In this document: one piece after another, positions 5,812 to 37,309 of the stretch
Position numbering within the stretch: position 1 is the stretch's first letter
Layout of the letters: every line of letters begins with the position of its first letter
Sequence record: OL631482.1
From: Escherichia phage ECML-359
Strand: one strand, 5' to 3'
Length of the DNA: 64,000 nucleotides
Position numbers and translations under genes: made by a program
Notes under the pieces: generated by a model
What the model saw: only the letters and a program-made list of their open reading frames with translations
Database searches by the model: none
Told to the model about the DNA's origin: nothing

Positions 5812-6282
5812 TTAATCATGTTTCCACACCCCATTGGTATTTGACCAAAGTCGCTGATTATCTGACCCTCGCCACAGTTTTTTGGTCGGAAGATTTTTCT
5901 CATACTTCCCATCAATAATAACATCAACATATTTAAGCATTTCTAGTTGTTTAATATCTTCAAACTTATATCCTGTCCACATCCAAATGCTTTTATTTGG
6001 ATAAAGATTTTTAACAGTTTGAACCACAGAGTGAATAACATCTCGGTTATCAGGATAGAGAGGGTCTCCTCCAGTTATAGTTAATCCTTCTATATAATCA
6101 TTATTCAAACATTCAATTAATTGTTCTAGTGTTTCACCAGTGAATGGAATACCATTTCTAGCGTTCCATGTTGATTTATTATAACACCCTTCACATTTAT
6201 GCAAACAACCTGTAACGAAAAGAACGACCCTGCAACCAGGGCCATTAATAAAATCACAAGGATAAATTCTATCATAATTCAT
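5812..6282 (-). CDS. nrdG: anaerobic ribonucleotide reductase activating protein (radical SAM)
   Basis: 156 aa; CLHKCEGC radical-SAM cysteine cluster; adjacent to nrdD. Confidence 0.9.
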   Translation of the reverse strand: MNYDRIYPCDFINGPGCRVVLFVTGCLHKCEGCYNKSTWNARNGIPFTGETLEQLIECLNNDYIEGLTITGGDPLYPDNRDVIHSVVQTVKNLYPNKSIWMWTGYKFEDIKQLEMLKYVDVIIDGKYEKNLPTKKLWRGSDNQRLWSNTNGVWKHD

Positions 6283-8096
6283 TGGTGTTTAACCCTATGC
6301 ATGATTTCTTTATTTTTGCCGAGATTAAATCCGCGTTCGTTCGGATTTCCCAAATAACCGCAAGTTCTTCTTATTGTGTTCATCTTTTTAGGGTCAGTTT
6401 CTCCACAAATAGAACAAACAAATCCGTTTTCAGTAGGAGTCATTTCATGGGTACTTCCACACGTAAAACATTTATCTACTGGCATGTTAACACCAAAATA
6501 ATCTAAATGTTGCGCGGCATAATCCCATACAGCCTCAAGACCTTTTAGGTTATTTTTCATATCAGGAAGTTCAACATAAGAAATGTGACCACCTGTCGCA
6601 ATGAAATGATATGGTGCTTCACGAGAAATCTTTTCAAACGGAGTGATATTTTCTTCTACTGAAACATGGAAACTGTTAGTGTACCATCCTTTATCGGTAA
6701 CATCTTTTACACTTCCATATTTTTCAGTATCAAGTTTACAGAAGCGATAACAAAGGTTTTCAGCAGGAGTAGAATACAAGCTAAAAGCAAAACCGGTTCT
6801 TTCAGTCCACTGCTTAAGACGAGCATTCATTTTAGTCAAAATTTCTTGTCCAATATCACGACCGACAAGAATATTCAATTCGTGAATACCAATGTATCCC
6901 AAAGACACTGAACTTCTACCGTTTTTAAATAACTCAATTATATCATCATCGGGTTTAAGACGAACCCCGAATGCACCTTCTTGGTAAAGAATAGGAGCAA
7001 CAGTCGCTTTAACTCCTTTTAAGGAATTAATTCTACACATCAAAGCTTCAAAACACAAATCCATTCGCTCATTGAACAATTCGATAAATTTCTGTTCATT
7101 GAACTGTGTTCCAATATAAGAATCTAACGCAATGCGAGGAAGATTCAGTGTTACAACGCCAAGATTATTACGTCCATCAAGAATTTCATTGCCAGTCGAA
7201 TCTTTCCATAAGCTCAAGAAACTACGGCAACCCATTGGAGAAACAGGAATAGATGAACCGGTGATAGCTTTGTTATTCTTAACTGAAATAATATCAGGAT
7301 ACATCCTTTTGCTTGCACACTCTAGAGCAAGCTGCTTAATATCATAGTTCGGGTCGTCTTTATAAAGATTAACACCTTCTTCAACGAACATAACAAGTTT
7401 AGGGAAAATAGGAGTTATCCCATCGCGACCAAGGCCTTTAATACGATTTTTCAGAATTGCTTTCTGAATCATTCGTTCAGTCCAGTCAGTTCCCGTGCCA
7501 AACGTAATTGTCACAAAAGGCGTTTGCCCATTTGAACTAAAGAGCGTATTTACTTCATATTCATAAGCTTGGAATGCATCGTATACGTCTTTTTCTGTTT
7601 TAGATTGGGCATAATTCAATGCATCAGTGATTTGCCATTTTTCTGCATCTTCAATATGTTTTGCGTATGTACGTTTAACATAAGGAGAAAATACTTTGTC
7701 TACATTAGCAAAAGTCGTTCCGCCATATTGGTGAGAAGCAACCTGTGCAGTAATTTGTGCCATAATTGCAGTAGCAACACCGATTGATTTAGGAGTTTCA
7801 ATCTGTGCATTACCAAGCTTAAATCCGTTCTCAAGCATTCCTTTTAAATCTACTAAACAGCAATTAGTAAATGGAAGAGCAGGGGAATAATCAATATCAT
7901 GGAAATGAATAATTCCACTTTCATGTGCTTTCATAATAAAAGACGCGACCATATTTTTGGCAATGTGTTTAGATACAATACCAGCCATAAGGTCCCGTTG
8001 AGTTGGAAAAACACGAGAATCTTTATTAGCATTCTCGTTTAAAAGGTCTTTATTAGTTTTATGAATCAATCCTTCAATTTCGTTTTCAATTGTCAT
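6279..8096 (-). CDS. nrdD: anaerobic ribonucleoside-triphosphate reductase (class III)
   Basis: 605 aa; C-terminal glycyl-radical motif RRTCGYLG and CxxC zinc ribbon; continuous ORF with no intron. Confidence 0.95.
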   Translation of the reverse strand: MTIENEIEGLIHKTNKDLLNENANKDSRVFPTQRDLMAGIVSKHIAKNMVASFIMKAHESGIIHFHDIDYSPALPFTNCCLVDLKGMLENGFKLGNAQIETPKSIGVATAIMAQITAQVASHQYGGTTFANVDKVFSPYVKRTYAKHIEDAEKWQITDALNYAQSKTEKDVYDAFQAYEYEVNTLFSSNGQTPFVTITFGTGTDWTERMIQKAILKNRIKGLGRDGITPIFPKLVMFVEEGVNLYKDDPNYDIKQLALECASKRMYPDIISVKNNKAITGSSIPVSPMGCRSFLSLWKDSTGNEILDGRNNLGVVTLNLPRIALDSYIGTQFNEQKFIELFNERMDLCFEALMCRINSLKGVKATVAPILYQEGAFGVRLKPDDDIIELFKNGRSSVSLGYIGIHELNILVGRDIGQEILTKMNARLKQWTERTGFAFSLYSTPAENLCYRFCKLDTEKYGSVKDVTDKGWYTNSFHVSVEENITPFEKISREAPYHFIATGGHISYVELPDMKNNLKGLEAVWDYAAQHLDYFGVNMPVDKCFTCGSTHEMTPTENGFVCSICGETDPKKMNTIRRTCGYLGNPNERGFNLGKNKEIMHRVKHQ

Positions 8097-21723: not shown

Positions 21724-21897
21724 AATTCAATTCCATCCATAGCCAAAATTCTTTTTCGTTGGGTCTTGAGAGCTTCGTTAGCCCGGTCATAATCTTCTTG
21801 ACTACCGCTAGGCTGTAAAGCCGCTACCTTTTTGGCCAAGTGAATAAGCTTATCCAAGTTTTCAACAATACGTTCTTGTTCTTCATTCAGGCTCATA
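21720..21897 (-). CDS. hypothetical small protein (58 aa)
   Basis: Own translation MSLNEEQERIVENL...; stop overlaps next ATG; not in track. Confidence 0.3.
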
Positions 21898-22347
21898 ATC
21901 CACCACTATTAAATCAATATCAGGAGTAAACATGTCGATTAATTTAGAAACCTTTTCCCAATCTCCACCTGCAATACCACAACCAATGCGAGGAATGTAA
22001 ATTACCGGTTTAAACAAAAGGGTTTCTGCTTGTAGATTTAATTCTATCATACAGTTTACTAAAGCACCATAATCAAGATTAGGACCTGGTTCATATTGAG
22101 TATACAAATTATAACACATACCAAACCCAGTAGGTTTATGTTTAAAAACAATAGACATATCGCCTAATTTATCACGAGAACCATATTCAGTAGTGGTTTT
22201 ATCTATTTCTAAAACTTTTGGATAAGCCTTCGCCAACTGTCCAGCTACACCAGAACCCATTGTGTGGAAGCAGTTGCAACCATGAGCAATAATATTGCCT
22301 TGAAGAAAGAGGGCGACGATATCGCCCTTAATATACTGGGTAATCAT
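21883..22347 (-). CDS. macro-domain-like protein (ADP-ribose binding/processing fold)
   Basis: Two glycine-rich motifs typical of macro domains: NIIAHGCNCFHTMGSGVAGQL and IPRIGCGIAGGDW. Confidence 0.5.
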   Translation of the reverse strand: MITQYIKGDIVALFLQGNIIAHGCNCFHTMGSGVAGQLAKAYPKVLEIDKTTTEYGSRDKLGDMSIVFKHKPTGFGMCYNLYTQYEPGPNLDYGALVNCMIELNLQAETLLFKPVIYIPRIGCGIAGGDWEKVSKLIDMFTPDIDLIVVDYEPE

Positions 22348-27207: not shown

Positions 27208-27666
27208 TTATCCGAAAATTTGAGTCATTACCTTGTACATCGATTTGCCCATCACATACTGCCATTGACTCGGTTTAATCAGAGCAAATGCATCGAACTC
27301 TGGAACCGAACTACCATCCGGGAAGGTATGATAGGCAGAGCATTTACTATGTCTGAACTGCTCATGCTCGACCGGAACCGTGTACAGAAACAGGTGAAGA
27401 TTTTTGTTATCTGAATAACGGAATTCACCCAGGTCCTTTAAGAATGCTGGGTCATATTGGGTAAACCCGGTTTCTTCTTCGGTTTCACGGATAGCAGCTT
27501 CAATCGGGGATTCACCAGCTTCAACATGACCCTTAGGGATGTCCCATTTGTGTGCAGGCATACCTGGTTTACGAGAACCAGTCACACGACCCATGAATAA
27601 CTCTTTATCTTCAGTCATGAAAATAATGCCGGCGGATAATTCTTTCACCTTGTTTTTCTTACTCAT
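27208..27666 (-). CDS. nudE: Nudix hydrolase
   Basis: Nudix box GHVEAGESPIEAAIRETEEETGF; start at MSKKNKV after trimming track ORF. Confidence 0.8.
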   Translation of the reverse strand: MSKKNKVKELSAGIIFMTEDKELFMGRVTGSRKPGMPAHKWDIPKGHVEAGESPIEAAIRETEEETGFTQYDPAFLKDLGEFRYSDNKNLHLFLYTVPVEHEQFRHSKCSAYHTFPDGSSVPEFDAFALIKPSQWQYVMGKSMYKVMTQIFG

Positions 27667-27895
27667 CGTCACGTTTCCATGATTGGTTAAAAATATCACT
27701 CATTAAAAATTCAAGTCTATTTTCCAATGAAGGAGATTCACTATCAGAAGTTTGAATTCTGTATTCAGAAATCGGGCGGAACATATCTAAGTCAGTTTCT
27801 AAATCATCTTTGATTTTCTCTTCTGATGTACCAGTATCATAGGAATACAGATAAGAATCACATGACTCGGATTTAATATAAATTGCAATACTCAT
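27659..27895 (-). CDS. hypothetical acidic protein (78 aa)
   Basis: ORF track; ATG overlaps upstream stop. Confidence 0.45.
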   Translation of the reverse strand: MSIAIYIKSESCDSYLYSYDTGTSEEKIKDDLETDLDMFRPISEYRIQTSDSESPSLENRLEFLMSDIFNQSWKRDDE

Positions 27896-28479
27896 TTACG
27901 GCATTCCTCAATAAAGGAGTTCAATGTATTTTTCTTAGTGATATCGTCATATACCTTTTTAACTTTAGAAATACGAAAAGGTACTTCAATAACCATAGTC
28001 CATAAAAATGATGCAATAAGCCCAGCGAGAGCAGTAGAAAAGCACGCACCCATTACAGCTACGGGTGCTTCATTTTTGCCTGTCAAGAAAAACCACAGAA
28101 ACGGTAAAAATAAGATTCCAGCCCAGGCATAAAACCTGGAACAAATTAACTTATCAAATTCATCACTCCAGGTACGAAATCCATATTTCTTGCTATAAGA
28201 AATTAATGGGTCTGGTGTCTGTTCTTTGAGCGGTTCTGGTTGATGCCCATTAATAATGTATCCCATTTTATATTCCTTAATTAAAAGCTCTTTCACATGA
28301 CGATTGCATCGCGACCAATCAACATTTTCCACCTTGATTCCTTCATCACCATCATCAAGGTTCGCCCAATATTTTTTGGTAATCATAAATTCATCTCTTG
28401 ATACAATTATACCTGCATTTTCTGCCCGGCGGATGAAGTTTACATCAACACCCATGCACCCGGGCTCATAAAGGGCCAT
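27892..28479 (-). CDS. hypothetical membrane protein (195 aa) with C-terminal FIEECRK
   Basis: Two C-terminal TM helices (FYAWAGILFLPFLWFFL, VAVMGACFSTALAGLIASFLWTMVI). Confidence 0.5.
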   Translation of the reverse strand: MALYEPGCMGVDVNFIRRAENAGIIVSRDEFMITKKYWANLDDGDEGIKVENVDWSRCNRHVKELLIKEYKMGYIINGHQPEPLKEQTPDPLISYSKKYGFRTWSDEFDKLICSRFYAWAGILFLPFLWFFLTGKNEAPVAVMGACFSTALAGLIASFLWTMVIEVPFRISKVKKVYDDITKKNTLNSFIEECRK

Positions 28480-29171
28480 TACCAGCCCTCCATAGGGAAT
28501 TCCAGATATACTTGAGCATTAACGCGGATTTCATTTGTAATCTTTTTAACACGGTCAGTATTACGAGACACACGACCAAACCAGCGCCACCCGTTACTTA
28601 CTGCGCGAGAACCTGTATGCCATGTCTGCCAATCAAACTGGAGCAATGTGCGGTCAGGAGCATCCCACTTGGTTAATTCATTGGACTCAATTTTTTCCAG
28701 AACTTCTTTATGCCACTGACGATAGATAAGTTCGCCTTCAGGAATCTGACTAAATTGTGCAGTTCCGGTTGCAAAATAAGTAGGACACACATCAGCGTTA
28801 ACAAGACCAAGAATATGTTCAGAATGGTAACGAGGATTATCATAATCAGGTTGCCCTGCGGTAATAAAGTGTTGACCCACCGGAATATCCGGACGTGGTA
28901 CATCGTCATGGTGATAACCTGGGATAGCAGGATACCAACCAGGCATCAGCATATGAACCCGAGAATCAAACACCAAATTATCGGGGCCATCAGTCCATTC
29001 TTTTGGTAGGTTATCAAGAAAACTGCGCGTGATTGGACCACCATGCTCATACGCAAATTCTGGATAGCAGTTAAAGAACATTGGTTCATTTTTGATTTGG
29101 TCATTTTGTACGTTATGTGCAAAACCACCAACTGCACGAGCTTGACTATTAAAAGTTTTCGGACCGTTCAT
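28479..29171 (-). CDS. hypothetical protein with 2OG-Fe(II)-oxygenase-like motif arrangement
   Basis: YHHDD (HxD), downstream His (WHTGS) and RxS (GRVS) in the order seen in 2OG oxygenases; motif-level only. Confidence 0.5.
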   Translation of the reverse strand: MNGPKTFNSQARAVGGFAHNVQNDQIKNEPMFFNCYPEFAYEHGGPITRSFLDNLPKEWTDGPDNLVFDSRVHMLMPGWYPAIPGYHHDDVPRPDIPVGQHFITAGQPDYDNPRYHSEHILGLVNADVCPTYFATGTAQFSQIPEGELIYRQWHKEVLEKIESNELTKWDAPDRTLLQFDWQTWHTGSRAVSNGWRWFGRVSRNTDRVKKITNEIRVNAQVYLEFPMEGW

Positions 29172-29230
29172 AATATTTTCCTCATTGATTGTGGGACCAT
29201 TGTGTCATAGTCCCACTTGGATGTACACAA

Positions 29231-30190
29231 TTATTTTTCGAAAGGACGAATTAAATGCTGGTTAGCTTTGAAACGTTTAACATAGTCTTCATGACCCAGG
29301 GTGTTGTACATATTAACCACTTCCTGGTAATGTTCCCAGGCATACTCGCGGAACCATCCAGAAGTAATGGAGGTGCAGACTTTTTCCAGCGCAATATTGA
29401 AGCTCACGGATGGAGAGATATTGAACTCATTGGGAACCTGCGAACGCTCCAGAGCGAGTACACATGCTTCTTCATAAACCCCTGCCAGTTTAATAATCTC
29501 AGGGAGTGCTTCAAATTTTTCACGCGAGGTCATAACTTCTGAATCATCCTTCATATAGAACTTATATGCAGGCTTATCAGCAAGCGCCACGGCCTCGTGG
29601 ATGGAGTCATGGTCAAGGGTATAGATTGTATCATTAAAGAAAGTTTTCTTGCCCACGTCTAGTTTAGGGTGACTATATGACAATGTTTCTGCCTGGCGCT
29701 GCAGCATGATTTTATGCAGTTCGTCATTAAGAACAACACCCTTATTGCGAAGGTAATTAATATGACTCATTGTCTTCAGGAAGAATGGATTGTTCTTCAG
29801 GTAACGATGAGACAGTTTAATTGCCAGACAAATATCAGGAGTCGCCCAATAGAAACCTGTAAGACGGTCTTTCTTAATATGATTTTCAGCGTATTTCAAG
29901 AGACGATAACTTGAGGTGAAATCTTCATCTTGAAGCTCACCAGTAATTTCTCGTACGTTAGTCAGGGCACGGACAATATAAGCTTCAAAATAGGTTTCTT
30001 TTCCATTGTACATACATTTAAAAGCTTGGACATCAGGGTTATCCACAGGAACATGAGCACCGAACATACGTGCTTTAAAGTGGTTCCAGGAGCCCTGGTC
30101 AGCGATAAAGTCCCAATCAGAGTTTTCAATTTTCTGACTTTCAATCAGACCAGCGTTATGTAATGCACGAGAACCAATAACTAACATCAT
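29231..30190 (-). CDS. hypothetical protein (319 aa)
   Basis: ORF track; no motif recognised. Confidence 0.55.
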   Translation of the reverse strand: MMLVIGSRALHNAGLIESQKIENSDWDFIADQGSWNHFKARMFGAHVPVDNPDVQAFKCMYNGKETYFEAYIVRALTNVREITGELQDEDFTSSYRLLKYAENHIKKDRLTGFYWATPDICLAIKLSHRYLKNNPFFLKTMSHINYLRNKGVVLNDELHKIMLQRQAETLSYSHPKLDVGKKTFFNDTIYTLDHDSIHEAVALADKPAYKFYMKDDSEVMTSREKFEALPEIIKLAGVYEEACVLALERSQVPNEFNISPSVSFNIALEKVCTSITSGWFREYAWEHYQEVVNMYNTLGHEDYVKRFKANQHLIRPFEK

Positions 30191-31006: not shown

Positions 31007-31234
31007 TTATTTTCCTAACGAAATACGAGTAGGTTTTTTACCGAAATATTCTTCATAGGAACCATCTAAACGACCCGCTTTAGACCGACAATACGAATCA
31101 TACTTTTTGTAATAAGTCAACTCGTTATTATAACGTGGATGTCTATCAGCCATAATAATACTTAATGGCCAACCTTTGGCATAATCACGAAGACCATTTA
31201 TTTTACGAATATATCTTTTCTTTAATTTTAGCAT
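31007..31234 (-). CDS. hypothetical basic protein (75 aa)
   Basis: ORF track. Confidence 0.45.
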   Translation of the reverse strand: MLKLKKRYIRKINGLRDYAKGWPLSIIMADRHPRYNNELTYYKKYDSYCRSKAGRLDGSYEEYFGKKPTRISLGK

Positions 31235-31452
31235 GAGCTCGGGTGCCAGATTTTACCGTCAGGTTGAGCAACGAAGGTACGACCAGCTTCTTCACCATAA
31301 CAAGAGCTGTTCAGCCAGTCTTCAAGACGAACCTCACCATCATATTCGTCAAGCTCAATACCGAAATCTTGAGCGTTAGCCATATCTTTTACTTTCTTAT
31401 ACAATGCAGCCAGTTCAAGTGCTGCTTTTTCTAATTCATTAATATCAGACAT
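31228..31452 (-). CDS. small protein, member of C-terminal-Cys paralog family (ends WHPSSC)
   Basis: Fourth of four tandem small ORFs ending in SS..C-stop. Confidence 0.5.
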   Translation of the reverse strand: MSDINELEKAALELAALYKKVKDMANAQDFGIELDEYDGEVRLEDWLNSSCYGEEAGRTFVAQPDGKIWHPSSC

Positions 31453-31461
31453 TTTTATTCC

Positions 31462-31659
31462 TTAGCATTCGTAAGAGGATGATACCCAAGAGGTACCACT
31501 AATAGTAATACAACCGTTATAAAGCGTGATATGTCGTTCTAAGTCACGAACACCATCAATGTAGATATCAGCTTCTTCGCGTTCTTCTTTACAAATCTGG
31601 ATAACGTTTTCAATAGCTGCCGCGGCAGTACGGATTGCACAATCTAATTCACGAGACAT
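31462..31659 (-). CDS. small protein, C-terminal-Cys paralog family (ends WVSSSYEC)
   Basis: Start moved to MSRELD with TAAGGA SD from upstream stop junction. Confidence 0.5.
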   Translation of the reverse strand: MSRELDCAIRTAAAAIENVIQICKEEREEADIYIDGVRDLERHITLYNGCITISGTSWVSSSYEC

Positions 31660-31667
31660 ATAATTCC

Positions 31668-31949
31668 TTAACATTCAGAAGAGGAGGACACCCAACCGCC
31701 ATTTTCCAGGTCAGTTGTATAGTCATGAGTGTTAACAATAGCCCATTCAGGATGACCATGTTCTTCCCAATGAGCAAGGTCAGCTTTCAAGGCGCCAGGA
31801 GAATAATAGTCACCGCCCATACCGCGAGCAGGGTATATATTAAAATGAGTCTCATATTTGTTTGCGATTTCCTCGGCACGACGAATAGCTTTATGGATAT
31901 CATTTACTGCGTTAGCCAGTTCTTTATTTTTACGGTAATCATTCATCAT
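31668..31949 (-). CDS. small protein, C-terminal-Cys paralog family (ends GGWVSSSSEC)
   Basis: Shares helix AIxx(A/S)EEIA..Y and G(G/A)WVSSS with neighbours. Confidence 0.5.
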   Translation of the reverse strand: MMNDYRKNKELANAVNDIHKAIRRAEEIANKYETHFNIYPARGMGGDYYSPGALKADLAHWEEHGHPEWAIVNTHDYTTDLENGGWVSSSSEC

Positions 31950-31958
31950 AGCGTTTCC

Positions 31959-32249
31959 TTAGCACATTGCCGAAGAGGAGACCCAAGCACCAACTGTAAC
32001 GACACCGTTTTCAACTTCGCCGCCGTTGTTTTCAATTTCATCTTTAAACCACTGGGAGCACTCATAACCGACAGGATAATATGTACGGCCTGAACCATAA
32101 TCACCGGTACCGAATTGGATACCATATTCATCTGCGATTTCTTCACAGTGTTTTTCAATTTCAGAGGTCTTATTTAGAAGAGAATAGATAGCTTTTTCTG
32201 CAGATTTCTCATCATAATACTTGGGGATAGCAATTTCAATTTTATTCAT
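31959..32249 (-). CDS. small protein, C-terminal-Cys paralog family (ends GAWVSSSAMC)
   Basis: First of the tandem array; ATG overlaps upstream stop. Confidence 0.5.
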   Translation of the reverse strand: MNKIEIAIPKYYDEKSAEKAIYSLLNKTSEIEKHCEEIADEYGIQFGTGDYGSGRTYYPVGYECSQWFKDEIENNGGEVENGVVTVGAWVSSSAMC

Positions 32250-37156: not shown

Positions 37157-37233
37157 TGGTCGGGGTGGTGGGATTCTAACCCACAACCTACGGTTTAGAA
37201 GACCGTTGCTCTATACAATTGAGCTACACCCCG
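37157..37233 (-). tRNA. tRNA-Arg (anticodon UCU), CCA encoded
   Basis: Hand-folded cloverleaf: acceptor CGGGGTG/CACCCCG, D stem GCTC/GAGC, anticodon stem ACGGT/ACCGT, loop CTTCTAA, T stem GTGGG/CCCAC. Confidence 0.8.
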
Positions 37234-37235
37234 GG

Positions 37236-37309
37236 TGGCCCCATCCGGACTTGAACCGGAAACCTGCCAGTTATGAGCCGGATGCTCTAACCAATTGAGC
37301 TACAGGGCC
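37236..37309 (-). tRNA. tRNA with CAU anticodon (Met or Ile2)
   Basis: Hand-folded cloverleaf: D stem GCTC/GAGC, T stem TCCGG/CCGGA with TTCAAGT loop, anticodon loop CTCATAA; one anticodon-stem mismatch. Confidence 0.65.

Follow-up and report, generated by a model that had tools for sequence, protein, structure and literature searches.

The minus-strand gene at positions 28479..29171 of Escherichia phage ECML-359 (sequence record OL631482.1; the 64,000-nucleotide stretch that was analysed is called the window below) very probably encodes an enzyme with the fold of the Fe(II)/2-oxoglutarate (2OG)-dependent oxygenases and an intact predicted active site. As judged from a predicted structural model, the protein of 230 amino acids (aa) resembles the PhyH-like members of this superfamily, while its family is an orphan at the level of sequence. 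A sequence-only reading of the window had called the product 2OG-Fe(II)-dioxygenase-like from a few short motifs, and had staked this call on the fold and on the conservation of the motif residues. The call holds at the fold level: the predicted model has the double-stranded beta-helix (jelly-roll) core, and the key residues are almost universal among diverse homologs. Far more tentatively, we propose that this Fe(II)/2OG oxygenase acts in the pool of nicotinamide adenine dinucleotide (NAD+), ADP-ribose and nucleotide metabolites, a combined statement that we regard as somewhat more likely to fail than to hold.

Predicted fold and active site

The gene and its putative catalytic elements are as follows.

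28479..29171, minus strand: coding sequence of the predicted Fe(II)/2OG oxygenase, PHROG 1843 family, 230 aa
28905..28913, minus strand: codons H87-H88-D89, with the proposed proximal His and Asp of the facial triad (H87-x-D89), from conservation
28617..28619, minus strand: codon of H185, proposed distal His of the triad, in predicted strand 184-187 (98% conserved; DSSP on the model)
28566..28586, minus strand: codons R196 to S202 (RWFGRVS), in predicted strand 194-203 (from conservation; roles proposed from spacing, not coordinates)
28820..28901, minus strand: residues 91-117, a family-specific insert between the HxD loop and the next core strand (from pLDDT and conservation)

The listing of open reading frames (ORFs) in the window contains this gene, with an ATG start and the expected 230-aa product, and the motifs pointed out in the sequence-only reading are all present: Y86-H87-H88-D89-D90, H185 within QTWHTGS, and R200-V-S202 within GRVS. 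By itself, the order of these motifs is weak evidence, because the loose pattern H.[DE]...H...R.S arises in 6.6% of shuffles of the protein. A strict pattern, H.D-x(60-140)-H-x10-R-x3-R.[ST], which was defined after the data had been seen, arises in 0.02%. It is conservation across the family that raises the motif above chance.

Conservation was assessed in 121 sequences, which represent clusters at no more than 50% identity. Of these, 99% retain H87, 98% each D89, H185, R196 and R200, and 94% Ser or Thr at position 202. The residues that flank the HxD motif are not kept (H88 in 50%, D90 in 75%); the HxD motif claimed earlier is thus real, but its metal-binding pair should most probably be read as H87-x-D89 and not as H88 and D90. 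H87 and R196 are invariant in a further alignment (A2, 112 sequences), and the same set of residues is invariant in the 30 most distant members, where the HxD begins at the equivalent of H88 and the other residues are numbered H188, R199 and R203. Other near-invariant positions are E29, D69, R71, H73, R93, Q107, P108, H119, R216 and Y222.

Such near-total conservation of exactly the metal triad and the 2OG-anchoring Arg, in members with as little as about 28% identity to the window protein, is the pattern expected from selection for catalysis. It speaks against the notion that the protein is an inert or non-oxidative member of the cupin fold, e.g. a ligand-binding "sponge" or an inhibitor, which we consider very improbable. 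A role of this kind would agree with the frequent sequestration of small molecules by phage counter-defence proteins, and with the presence of family members on a contig that had been assigned to a strictly anaerobic archaeon (our locus L108), where O2-dependent chemistry would come as a surprise. However, the binning of this 21-kb, viral-looking contig into a metagenome-assembled genome is unreliable.

In the predicted model, the HxD motif comes after the first long core strand (residues 66-75), H185 lies in strand 184-187 and R196 starts strand 194-203; the canonical H-x-D/E...H order is found on the canonical elements of the superfamily, with a basic residue on the strand after the distal His. 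From this order, spacing and secondary structure we infer that H87, D89 and H185 converge to form the metal triad. R196, R200 and S202 occupy alternate positions of strand 194-203 in the model and hence share one face. The sequence-only reading had assigned the 2OG-anchoring role to R200 of the GRVS motif. An anchoring Arg is supported, but R196 appears to be the likelier ligand of the 2OG C5-carboxylate, because its position 11 residues after H185 corresponds to the His-to-Arg spacing that is characteristic of PhyH- and TauD-type enzymes. In particular, the H-x10-R-x3-R arrangement resembles H255, R266 and R270 of E. coli TauD, in which the first Arg (R266) binds 2OG and the second (R270) binds the anionic substrate. 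R200 is more likely a second ligand contact, and R200 and S202 may contact the substrate or 2OG. The insert at residues 91-117 has the lowest internal confidence of the model (a predicted local distance difference test score, pLDDT, of 69-71 for residues 91-110) and carries the conserved R93 (97%), Q107 (93%) and P108 (97%); it is a possible substrate lid.

According to this model, the protein would be a soluble, standalone, non-haem Fe(II)/2OG-dependent oxygenase with a PhyH-like double-stranded beta-helix fold. Fe(II) would be held by H87, D89 and H185, and 2OG would chelate the metal, with its distal carboxylate anchored by R196. O2 would then drive the decarboxylation of 2OG to succinate and CO2, and the Fe(IV)=O species would oxidize a substrate in a pocket that is predicted to be lined by the invariant E29, D69, R71, H73, R93, Q107, H119, R200, R216 and Y222.

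Family assignment and distribution

The protein matches PHROG 1843 over its full length (E 1.7e-91, residues 1-230 on positions 1-222 of the 222-position profile), a family labelled "unknown function". Searches with curated profiles weigh against the enzyme-class assignment: the protein has no match in Pfam or NCBIfam, with PhyH giving none at E<=1, and a Pfam scan of 112 family members returned only noise (PhyH in 1 of 112, E 0.068) and no signal for AlkB, 2OG-FeII_Oxy, P4H or JmjC/cupin_4. The same direction is indicated by the comparison of the family hidden Markov model (HMM) with the PDB, which retrieved no chain at E<=10, and by that with E. coli TauD in hhalign, which found nothing (probability 0.2%). 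PADLOC found nothing in the ECML-359 protein. In a phmmer search of the PDB with the protein, a weak match to isopentenyl-diphosphate isomerase (E 0.09) was dismissed as noise, and a regular-expression trawl of the fetched loci for other 2OG oxygenases was dropped, as its 56 candidates were unspecific.

On the other hand, structure comparison, which had been suggested along with the profile search as a check of the sequence-only reading, gave a positive answer where the profiles did not: PhyH-like small-molecule hydroxylases score above every AlkB homolog. The closest known proteins are found in the PhyH-like group (PF05721), namely human PHYH, EctD, EasH, proline hydroxylase H11, AsqJ, KanJ and EvdO/HygX. 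Compared with PhyH, the ECML-359 protein has no similarity at the HMM level, is shorter (230 aa), contains the 27-residue insert directly after HxD, and has its own set of invariant residues as well as a conserved C-terminal tail, NEIRxQxQVY...GW. Since the fold and the motifs are those of the superfamily, whereas all curated HMMs fail to recognize the protein, we describe it as a representative of a new family within the superfamily rather than as a member of PhyH.

Other annotators have independently arrived at this enzyme class. The ortholog is called "phytanoyl-CoA dioxygenase" in Escherichia phage EAWsc9 (PQ341120.1), the closest relative of the Gaprivervirus-like T-even phage in the window (96% identity over 4 kb), while the record of Citrobacter phage Ursula gives "2OG-Fe(II) oxygenase" and UniRef lists the AS-yj cluster as a PhyH family protein. 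The EAWsc9 label counts for little, because this record carries many implausible product names; small T-even ORFs of about 75-100 aa are called there "ovule protein", "malate synthase" and "transposase", and the name "VirB3" also occurs.

Uncharacterized 2OG-Fe(II) oxygenase and PhyH-domain proteins have long been noted in T4-like cyanomyoviruses (PMC3037559), and cyanophage proteins are among the weak structural matches in BFVD. An accessory 2OG oxygenase in a T4-like phage is unsurprising in kind, because T4-like genomes of cyanophages carry such proteins. The likeness consists in both being accessory proteins of T4-like phages with a 2OG-oxygenase fold. However, the cyanophage proteins are recognized by Pfam and the family studied here is not, so that they constitute separate sequence families, and a different context underlies the roles proposed for the former (2OG/nitrogen signalling, DNA repair).

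The family comprises 1400 homologs at E<=1e-3 in a collection clustered at 90% identity, which form 738 clusters at 50% identity; most are standalone proteins of 205-235 aa. By tblastn it is found in 471 of 50,697 phage records (about 0.9%). These include T-even relatives that infect Escherichia, Shigella, Klebsiella, Enterobacter, Serratia, Citrobacter and Aeromonas, Vequintavirinae such as CR3, Acinetobacter phages, 33 Mycobacterium phages and 22 Gordonia phages. A search of bacterial and archaeal contigs (one genome per species) gave 24 matches, which lie amid genes for DnaB, family-A DNA polymerase and single-subunit RNA polymerase and co-oriented small ORFs. These matches are prophage or phage DNA, and the family is restricted to phages.

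This breadth argues against a role tied to the hypermodification of cytosine in T-even phages, a connection that had been raised in the sequence-only reading and that finds no support here. Phage TET-like 2OG oxygenases that act on 5-methylcytosine do exist, and the gene does reside in a T-even phage, i.e. in a group with modified cytosine. However, its relatives occur in phages of very different DNA chemistry, including T7-like prophages with single-subunit RNA polymerase, Vequintavirinae, and siphophages of Mycobacterium and Gordonia, and no methyltransferase, hydroxymethylase or glycosyltransferase recurs in their neighbourhoods. Neither the fold variant of the TET/JBP enzymes nor their association with DNA-modification genes was found, and we judge it extremely unlikely that the protein is a TET/JBP-like enzyme which hypermodifies cytosine or other nucleobases in T-even DNA.

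Gene neighbourhoods and the NAD+ lead

To describe the genomic context of the family, 186 loci around its members were fetched, their ORFs were called and clustered, and the loci were grouped into 47 lineages, between which the identity of the family member is below 60%. Counted by lineage, the commonest neighbours are DnaB (13), HNH (11), PolA (10), ATP-dependent ligase (9) and RNA polymerase (5), and 5'-3' exonuclease and endonuclease I are also found.

The most specific neighbour is a NAMPT/Namat-like phosphoribosyltransferase (Pfam NAPRTase+NAMPT_N). In 11 of the 47 lineages it is found within 7 kb of the family member; the median gap is 291 bp, and the two genes share a strand in all 16 cases. 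It directly adjoins the oxygenase gene in L042, L044, L076, L083, L124 and L164, and is one gene away in L058, L173, L176, L179, L183 and L108; the pairing holds at 28-30% identity to the window protein. NAMPT-like genes are present in 4% of phage records, and the binomial probability of at least 11 of 47 lineages at this frequency is 2e-6, in a calculation that does not require proximity and treats lineages that are not fully independent. Two clades can be distinguished among the neighbouring NAMPTs: a NARP1-like one, accompanied by a PRPS-like gene, and a NARP2-like one, accompanied by NMNAT-Nudix. In pairwise comparisons, the divergence of these NAMPTs shows no correlation with that of the adjacent family members (Spearman 0.09, 120 pairs), which argues that the juxtaposition was assembled or reshuffled repeatedly rather than inherited once.

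Further genes confirmed by Pfam near the pairs encode NMNAT-Nudix fusions, PRPP-synthetase-like proteins, NADAR, NAD kinase and nucleoside-2-deoxyribosyltransferase-like proteins, and in L108 an ADP-ribosylglycohydrolase lies between the family member and NAMPT. In L129 a quinolinate synthase NadA (5964-6866, Pfam E 1e-79) lies between the NMNAT-Nudix gene and the family member, with NAMPT three genes on; this places an enzyme of de novo NAD+ synthesis inside a phage salvage cluster. Genes with Nudix domains, standalone or fused to NMNAT, are found near the family member in 9 of the 47 lineages, and in the T7-like loci L163 and L171 a standalone Nudix gene directly follows it. A Macro-like neighbour of the family matches Pfam below the curated cutoff (18.6 bits vs 22). 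The window itself contains two genes for the handling of ADP-ribose within 7 kb of the oxygenase gene.

27208..27699, minus strand: NudE Nudix hydrolase, two genes downstream of the oxygenase gene (Pfam NUDIX 3.1e-16)
21883..22347, minus strand: Macro-domain protein, 154 aa, about 6 kb downstream of the oxygenase gene (Pfam Macro E 5.6e-8, 33.2 bits vs a cutoff of 22)

The Macro domain binds or processes ADP-ribose. The nudE gene may be a functional neighbour of the oxygenase gene, because Nudix genes recur beside members of the family.

A strongly basic invariant pocket and these neighbourhood data together make a small, anionic, phosphate-bearing metabolite of the NAD+/ADP-ribose/nucleotide pool, and not DNA cytosine, our first guess for the substrate. 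In that case the enzyme would serve the phage as an optional accessory in the handling of NAD+ and ADP-ribose, expressed with the early and middle genes. Operons of the NARP1 type are known to carry extra accessory enzymes: the Macro phosphatase Adpp, present in 15% of NARP1 phages (NARP1-AP), adjusts the pathway to a defence whose product is ADPR-1''-phosphate, and thereby turns a non-standard product of NAD+ breakdown into a usable substrate (Osterman et al. 2026, bioRxiv 10.64898/2026.01.28.702374). Add-on enzymes of phage NAD+-reconstitution operons therefore exist, and the oxygenase is likewise an occasional add-on beside Namat/Nampt genes. However, its fold and chemistry are unrelated to those of Adpp, it is much rarer beside NAMPT, and most members of its family lie outside NARP operons. 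NARP3, which consists of the pair PnuC+NadR, is unrelated. By analogy with Adpp, the enzyme might convert or remove a non-standard NAD+-derived product. One option is that it would use 2OG and O2 to turn a non-canonical NAD+ breakdown product, generated by a defence system, into a compound that can be recycled by Nudix or NARP enzymes; another is the removal of a substituted ADP-ribose, of an NAD+-derived signal, or of an ADP-ribosyl adduct.

Several observations weigh against this scenario. The 64-kb window contains no homolog of NAMPT, NMNAT or PRPS, about three quarters of the lineages have no NAD-related neighbour and lie amid replication genes instead, and the incomplete independence of the 47 lineages also affects the counts given above. 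The link is one-sided: in a reverse census, made with a narrower NAMPT alignment since the broad one was too diverse to scan with, a family member within 7 kb was seen in only 1 of 80 independent viral loci centred on NAMPT. In isolates that possess both genes, NAMPT and the oxygenase gene can be tens of kb apart (ABPH49, Av-05), and a search for a cultured phage in which they adjoin found none. Accessory and counter-defence genes of phages cluster irrespective of pathway, and genes of RNA repair also neighbour the family (RtcB in the actinophages SirSheldon and Engineer, RNA ligase in L058). Finally, we know of no 2OG oxygenase that acts on metabolites of NAD+ or ADP-ribose. Taking the parts of the proposal separately, we consider it rather doubtful that the substrate belongs to NAD+/ADP-ribose metabolism, and unlikely that the family is an unrecognized oxidative accessory enzyme of the conflict between phages and bacteria over NAD+ and ADP-ribose.

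The neighbourhoods are also relevant to an AlkB-like function, i.e. oxidative repair or modification of bases or sugars of DNA or RNA while the phage replicates or repairs RNA; the most speculative version is that the enzyme would oxidatively remove ADP-ribosyl adducts from DNA. Replication and repair genes are the commonest neighbours, RNA-repair genes recur (in addition to RtcB and RNA ligase, Ro60/TROVE in L164 and L179), the many conserved Arg residues could bind the phosphodiester backbone, and the protein shares with AlkB the superfamily and the HxD...H...R logic, with ALKBH2, ALKBH3 and ALKBH5 as moderate structural matches. However, these matches score lower than the PhyH-like hydroxylases, the H-x10-R-x3-R spacing differs from the AlkB pattern, H187...R204-x5-R210, and neither AlkB nor 2OG-FeII_Oxy is matched by Pfam in the 112 members scanned. 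Moreover, replication genes are the default setting of early and middle accessory genes, which makes this context unspecific. We consider an AlkB-like function improbable.

Still less probable is a hydroxylase of prolyl, lysyl, arginyl or asparaginyl residues that would modify a host or phage protein, e.g. a translation factor or a ribosomal protein, for the takeover of the host. Its structural counterparts rank below the PhyH-like small-molecule enzymes, the Pfam scan gave no P4H or JmjC/cupin_4 signal, no conserved partner or target gene was found, and it would leave the juxtaposition with NAMPT, NMNAT, Nudix and PRPS unexplained.

Some further neighbours deserve mention in their own right. 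Ro60-like proteins (TROVE + vWA_Ro60) lie within two genes of the pair of NAMPT and oxygenase genes in two distant viral contigs, L164 (2203-3780) and L179 (4834-6228); together with RtcB, these neighbours suggest that RNA-repair and NAD+ modules may be connected. Another recurrent neighbour, seen at a distance of a few kb in L002, L042, L043, L058, L060 and L184, is a protein of about 660-720 aa without a match in Pfam; it is exemplified by gp055 of Cronobacter phage CR3 (L002, 349-2358), and in L042 and L058 it shares a block with NAMPT. The records of Escherichia phages Av-05 and phiE142 (L008 and L009), which at about 121 kb have an odd size for T-even phages, contain family members at 86-88% identity and keep the T-even order of the oxygenase gene, e.2, a small ORF, nudE, lysozyme and denV; in Av-05 a NAMPT-like gene is located about 90 kb from the oxygenase gene. 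A cluster of supposed metallophosphoesterase neighbours ("MPE") was withdrawn, as it had been chained through HNH endonucleases by single linkage.

Local setting in the window and significance

The oxygenase gene is part of a same-strand series in the order denV, lysozyme e, nudE, a small ORF, the e.2-like gene, the oxygenase gene and a gene for a 319-aa protein with DUF7277 and DUF7275. It lies between nudE and two tRNA genes (37157-37309), as the sequence-only reading had placed it. The immediate surroundings contain the following elements.

29178..29183, minus strand: Shine-Dalgarno-like GAGGAA, 6 nt ahead of the ATG (read from the sequence)
27892..28479, minus strand: e.2-like membrane protein (PHROG 2203), whose start overlaps the stop of the oxygenase gene
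29231-30190, minus strand: DUF7277+DUF7275 protein, 319 aa, upstream neighbour (Pfam E 4e-26 and 5e-76)
29191..29216, minus strand: perfect 10-bp hairpin/inverted repeat GTGGGACCAT...ATAGTCCCAC, in the 59-nt gap upstream of the ribosome-binding site of the oxygenase gene

The stop codon of the oxygenase gene and the start codon of the e.2-like gene share the sequence TAATG at 28479; the e.2-like gene follows the oxygenase gene only within the T-even lineage. The DUF7277/DUF7275 protein was likewise rejected as a conserved partner, since it accompanies the oxygenase only in that lineage, and it has no similarity to the Pol-beta-like gene found beside the family member in L076. Its N-terminus, IGSRAL...SDWDFI, resembles the G-S...D-x-D signature of nucleotidyltransferases of the Pol-beta type, and its ortholog in EAWsc9 is labelled nucleotidyltransferase. 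A specific connection of the oxygenase with tRNA was rejected as well: the tRNA genes of the window are 8 kb away, and RtcB/tRNA neighbours were seen only in the two actinophage loci examined.

The hairpin at 29191..29216 is retained in the centroid structure (-17.3 kcal/mol) of the surrounding 81-nt stretch, which folds at -17.8 kcal/mol; this stretch folds no better than its shuffles (z-score -1.56). The hairpin is not terminator-like, because it has no T-run, and it is absent from the output of the terminator scan. Farther upstream, at 31228-32249 on the minus strand, four consecutive small ORFs of 74, 70, 93 and 96 aa have a similar C-terminal motif, W-x-[SP]-S-S-x(0-2)-C (IWHPSSC, SWVSSSYEC, GWVSSSSEC and AWVSSSAMC); none of the four has a Pfam match, and by their sequences they look like a tandem paralogous family of small proteins.

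The proposed family is present in about 1% of sequenced phages, including many phages of E. coli, Klebsiella, Aeromonas and Mycobacterium from therapy collections, and its members are still annotated as "hypothetical", with no curated profile that recognizes them. The assignment of a predicted enzyme class with named catalytic residues makes the family directly accessible to experimental tests. A concrete lead is that the family has come to lie beside both types of NAD+-reconstitution operons repeatedly and in independent assemblies. Recent work on NARP has shown that these operons acquire further enzymes in answer to new bacterial defences. The preprint on NARP1/2, the survey of NAD+-ADPr in viral proteomes and the paper on NAD+ in jumbo phages mention no oxygenase, and the NAMPT link is absent from the NARP papers and from the survey, i.e. 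it is previously unreported. If the lead is correct, no earlier 2OG oxygenase would have been placed in NAD+/ADP-ribose metabolism, and the enzyme would represent both a novel type of counter-defence chemistry and an oxygenase counterpart of Adpp. If the NAD+ lead fails, a family of phage "dark matter" would still have been assigned a fold, along with an active site and a short list of possible substrates.

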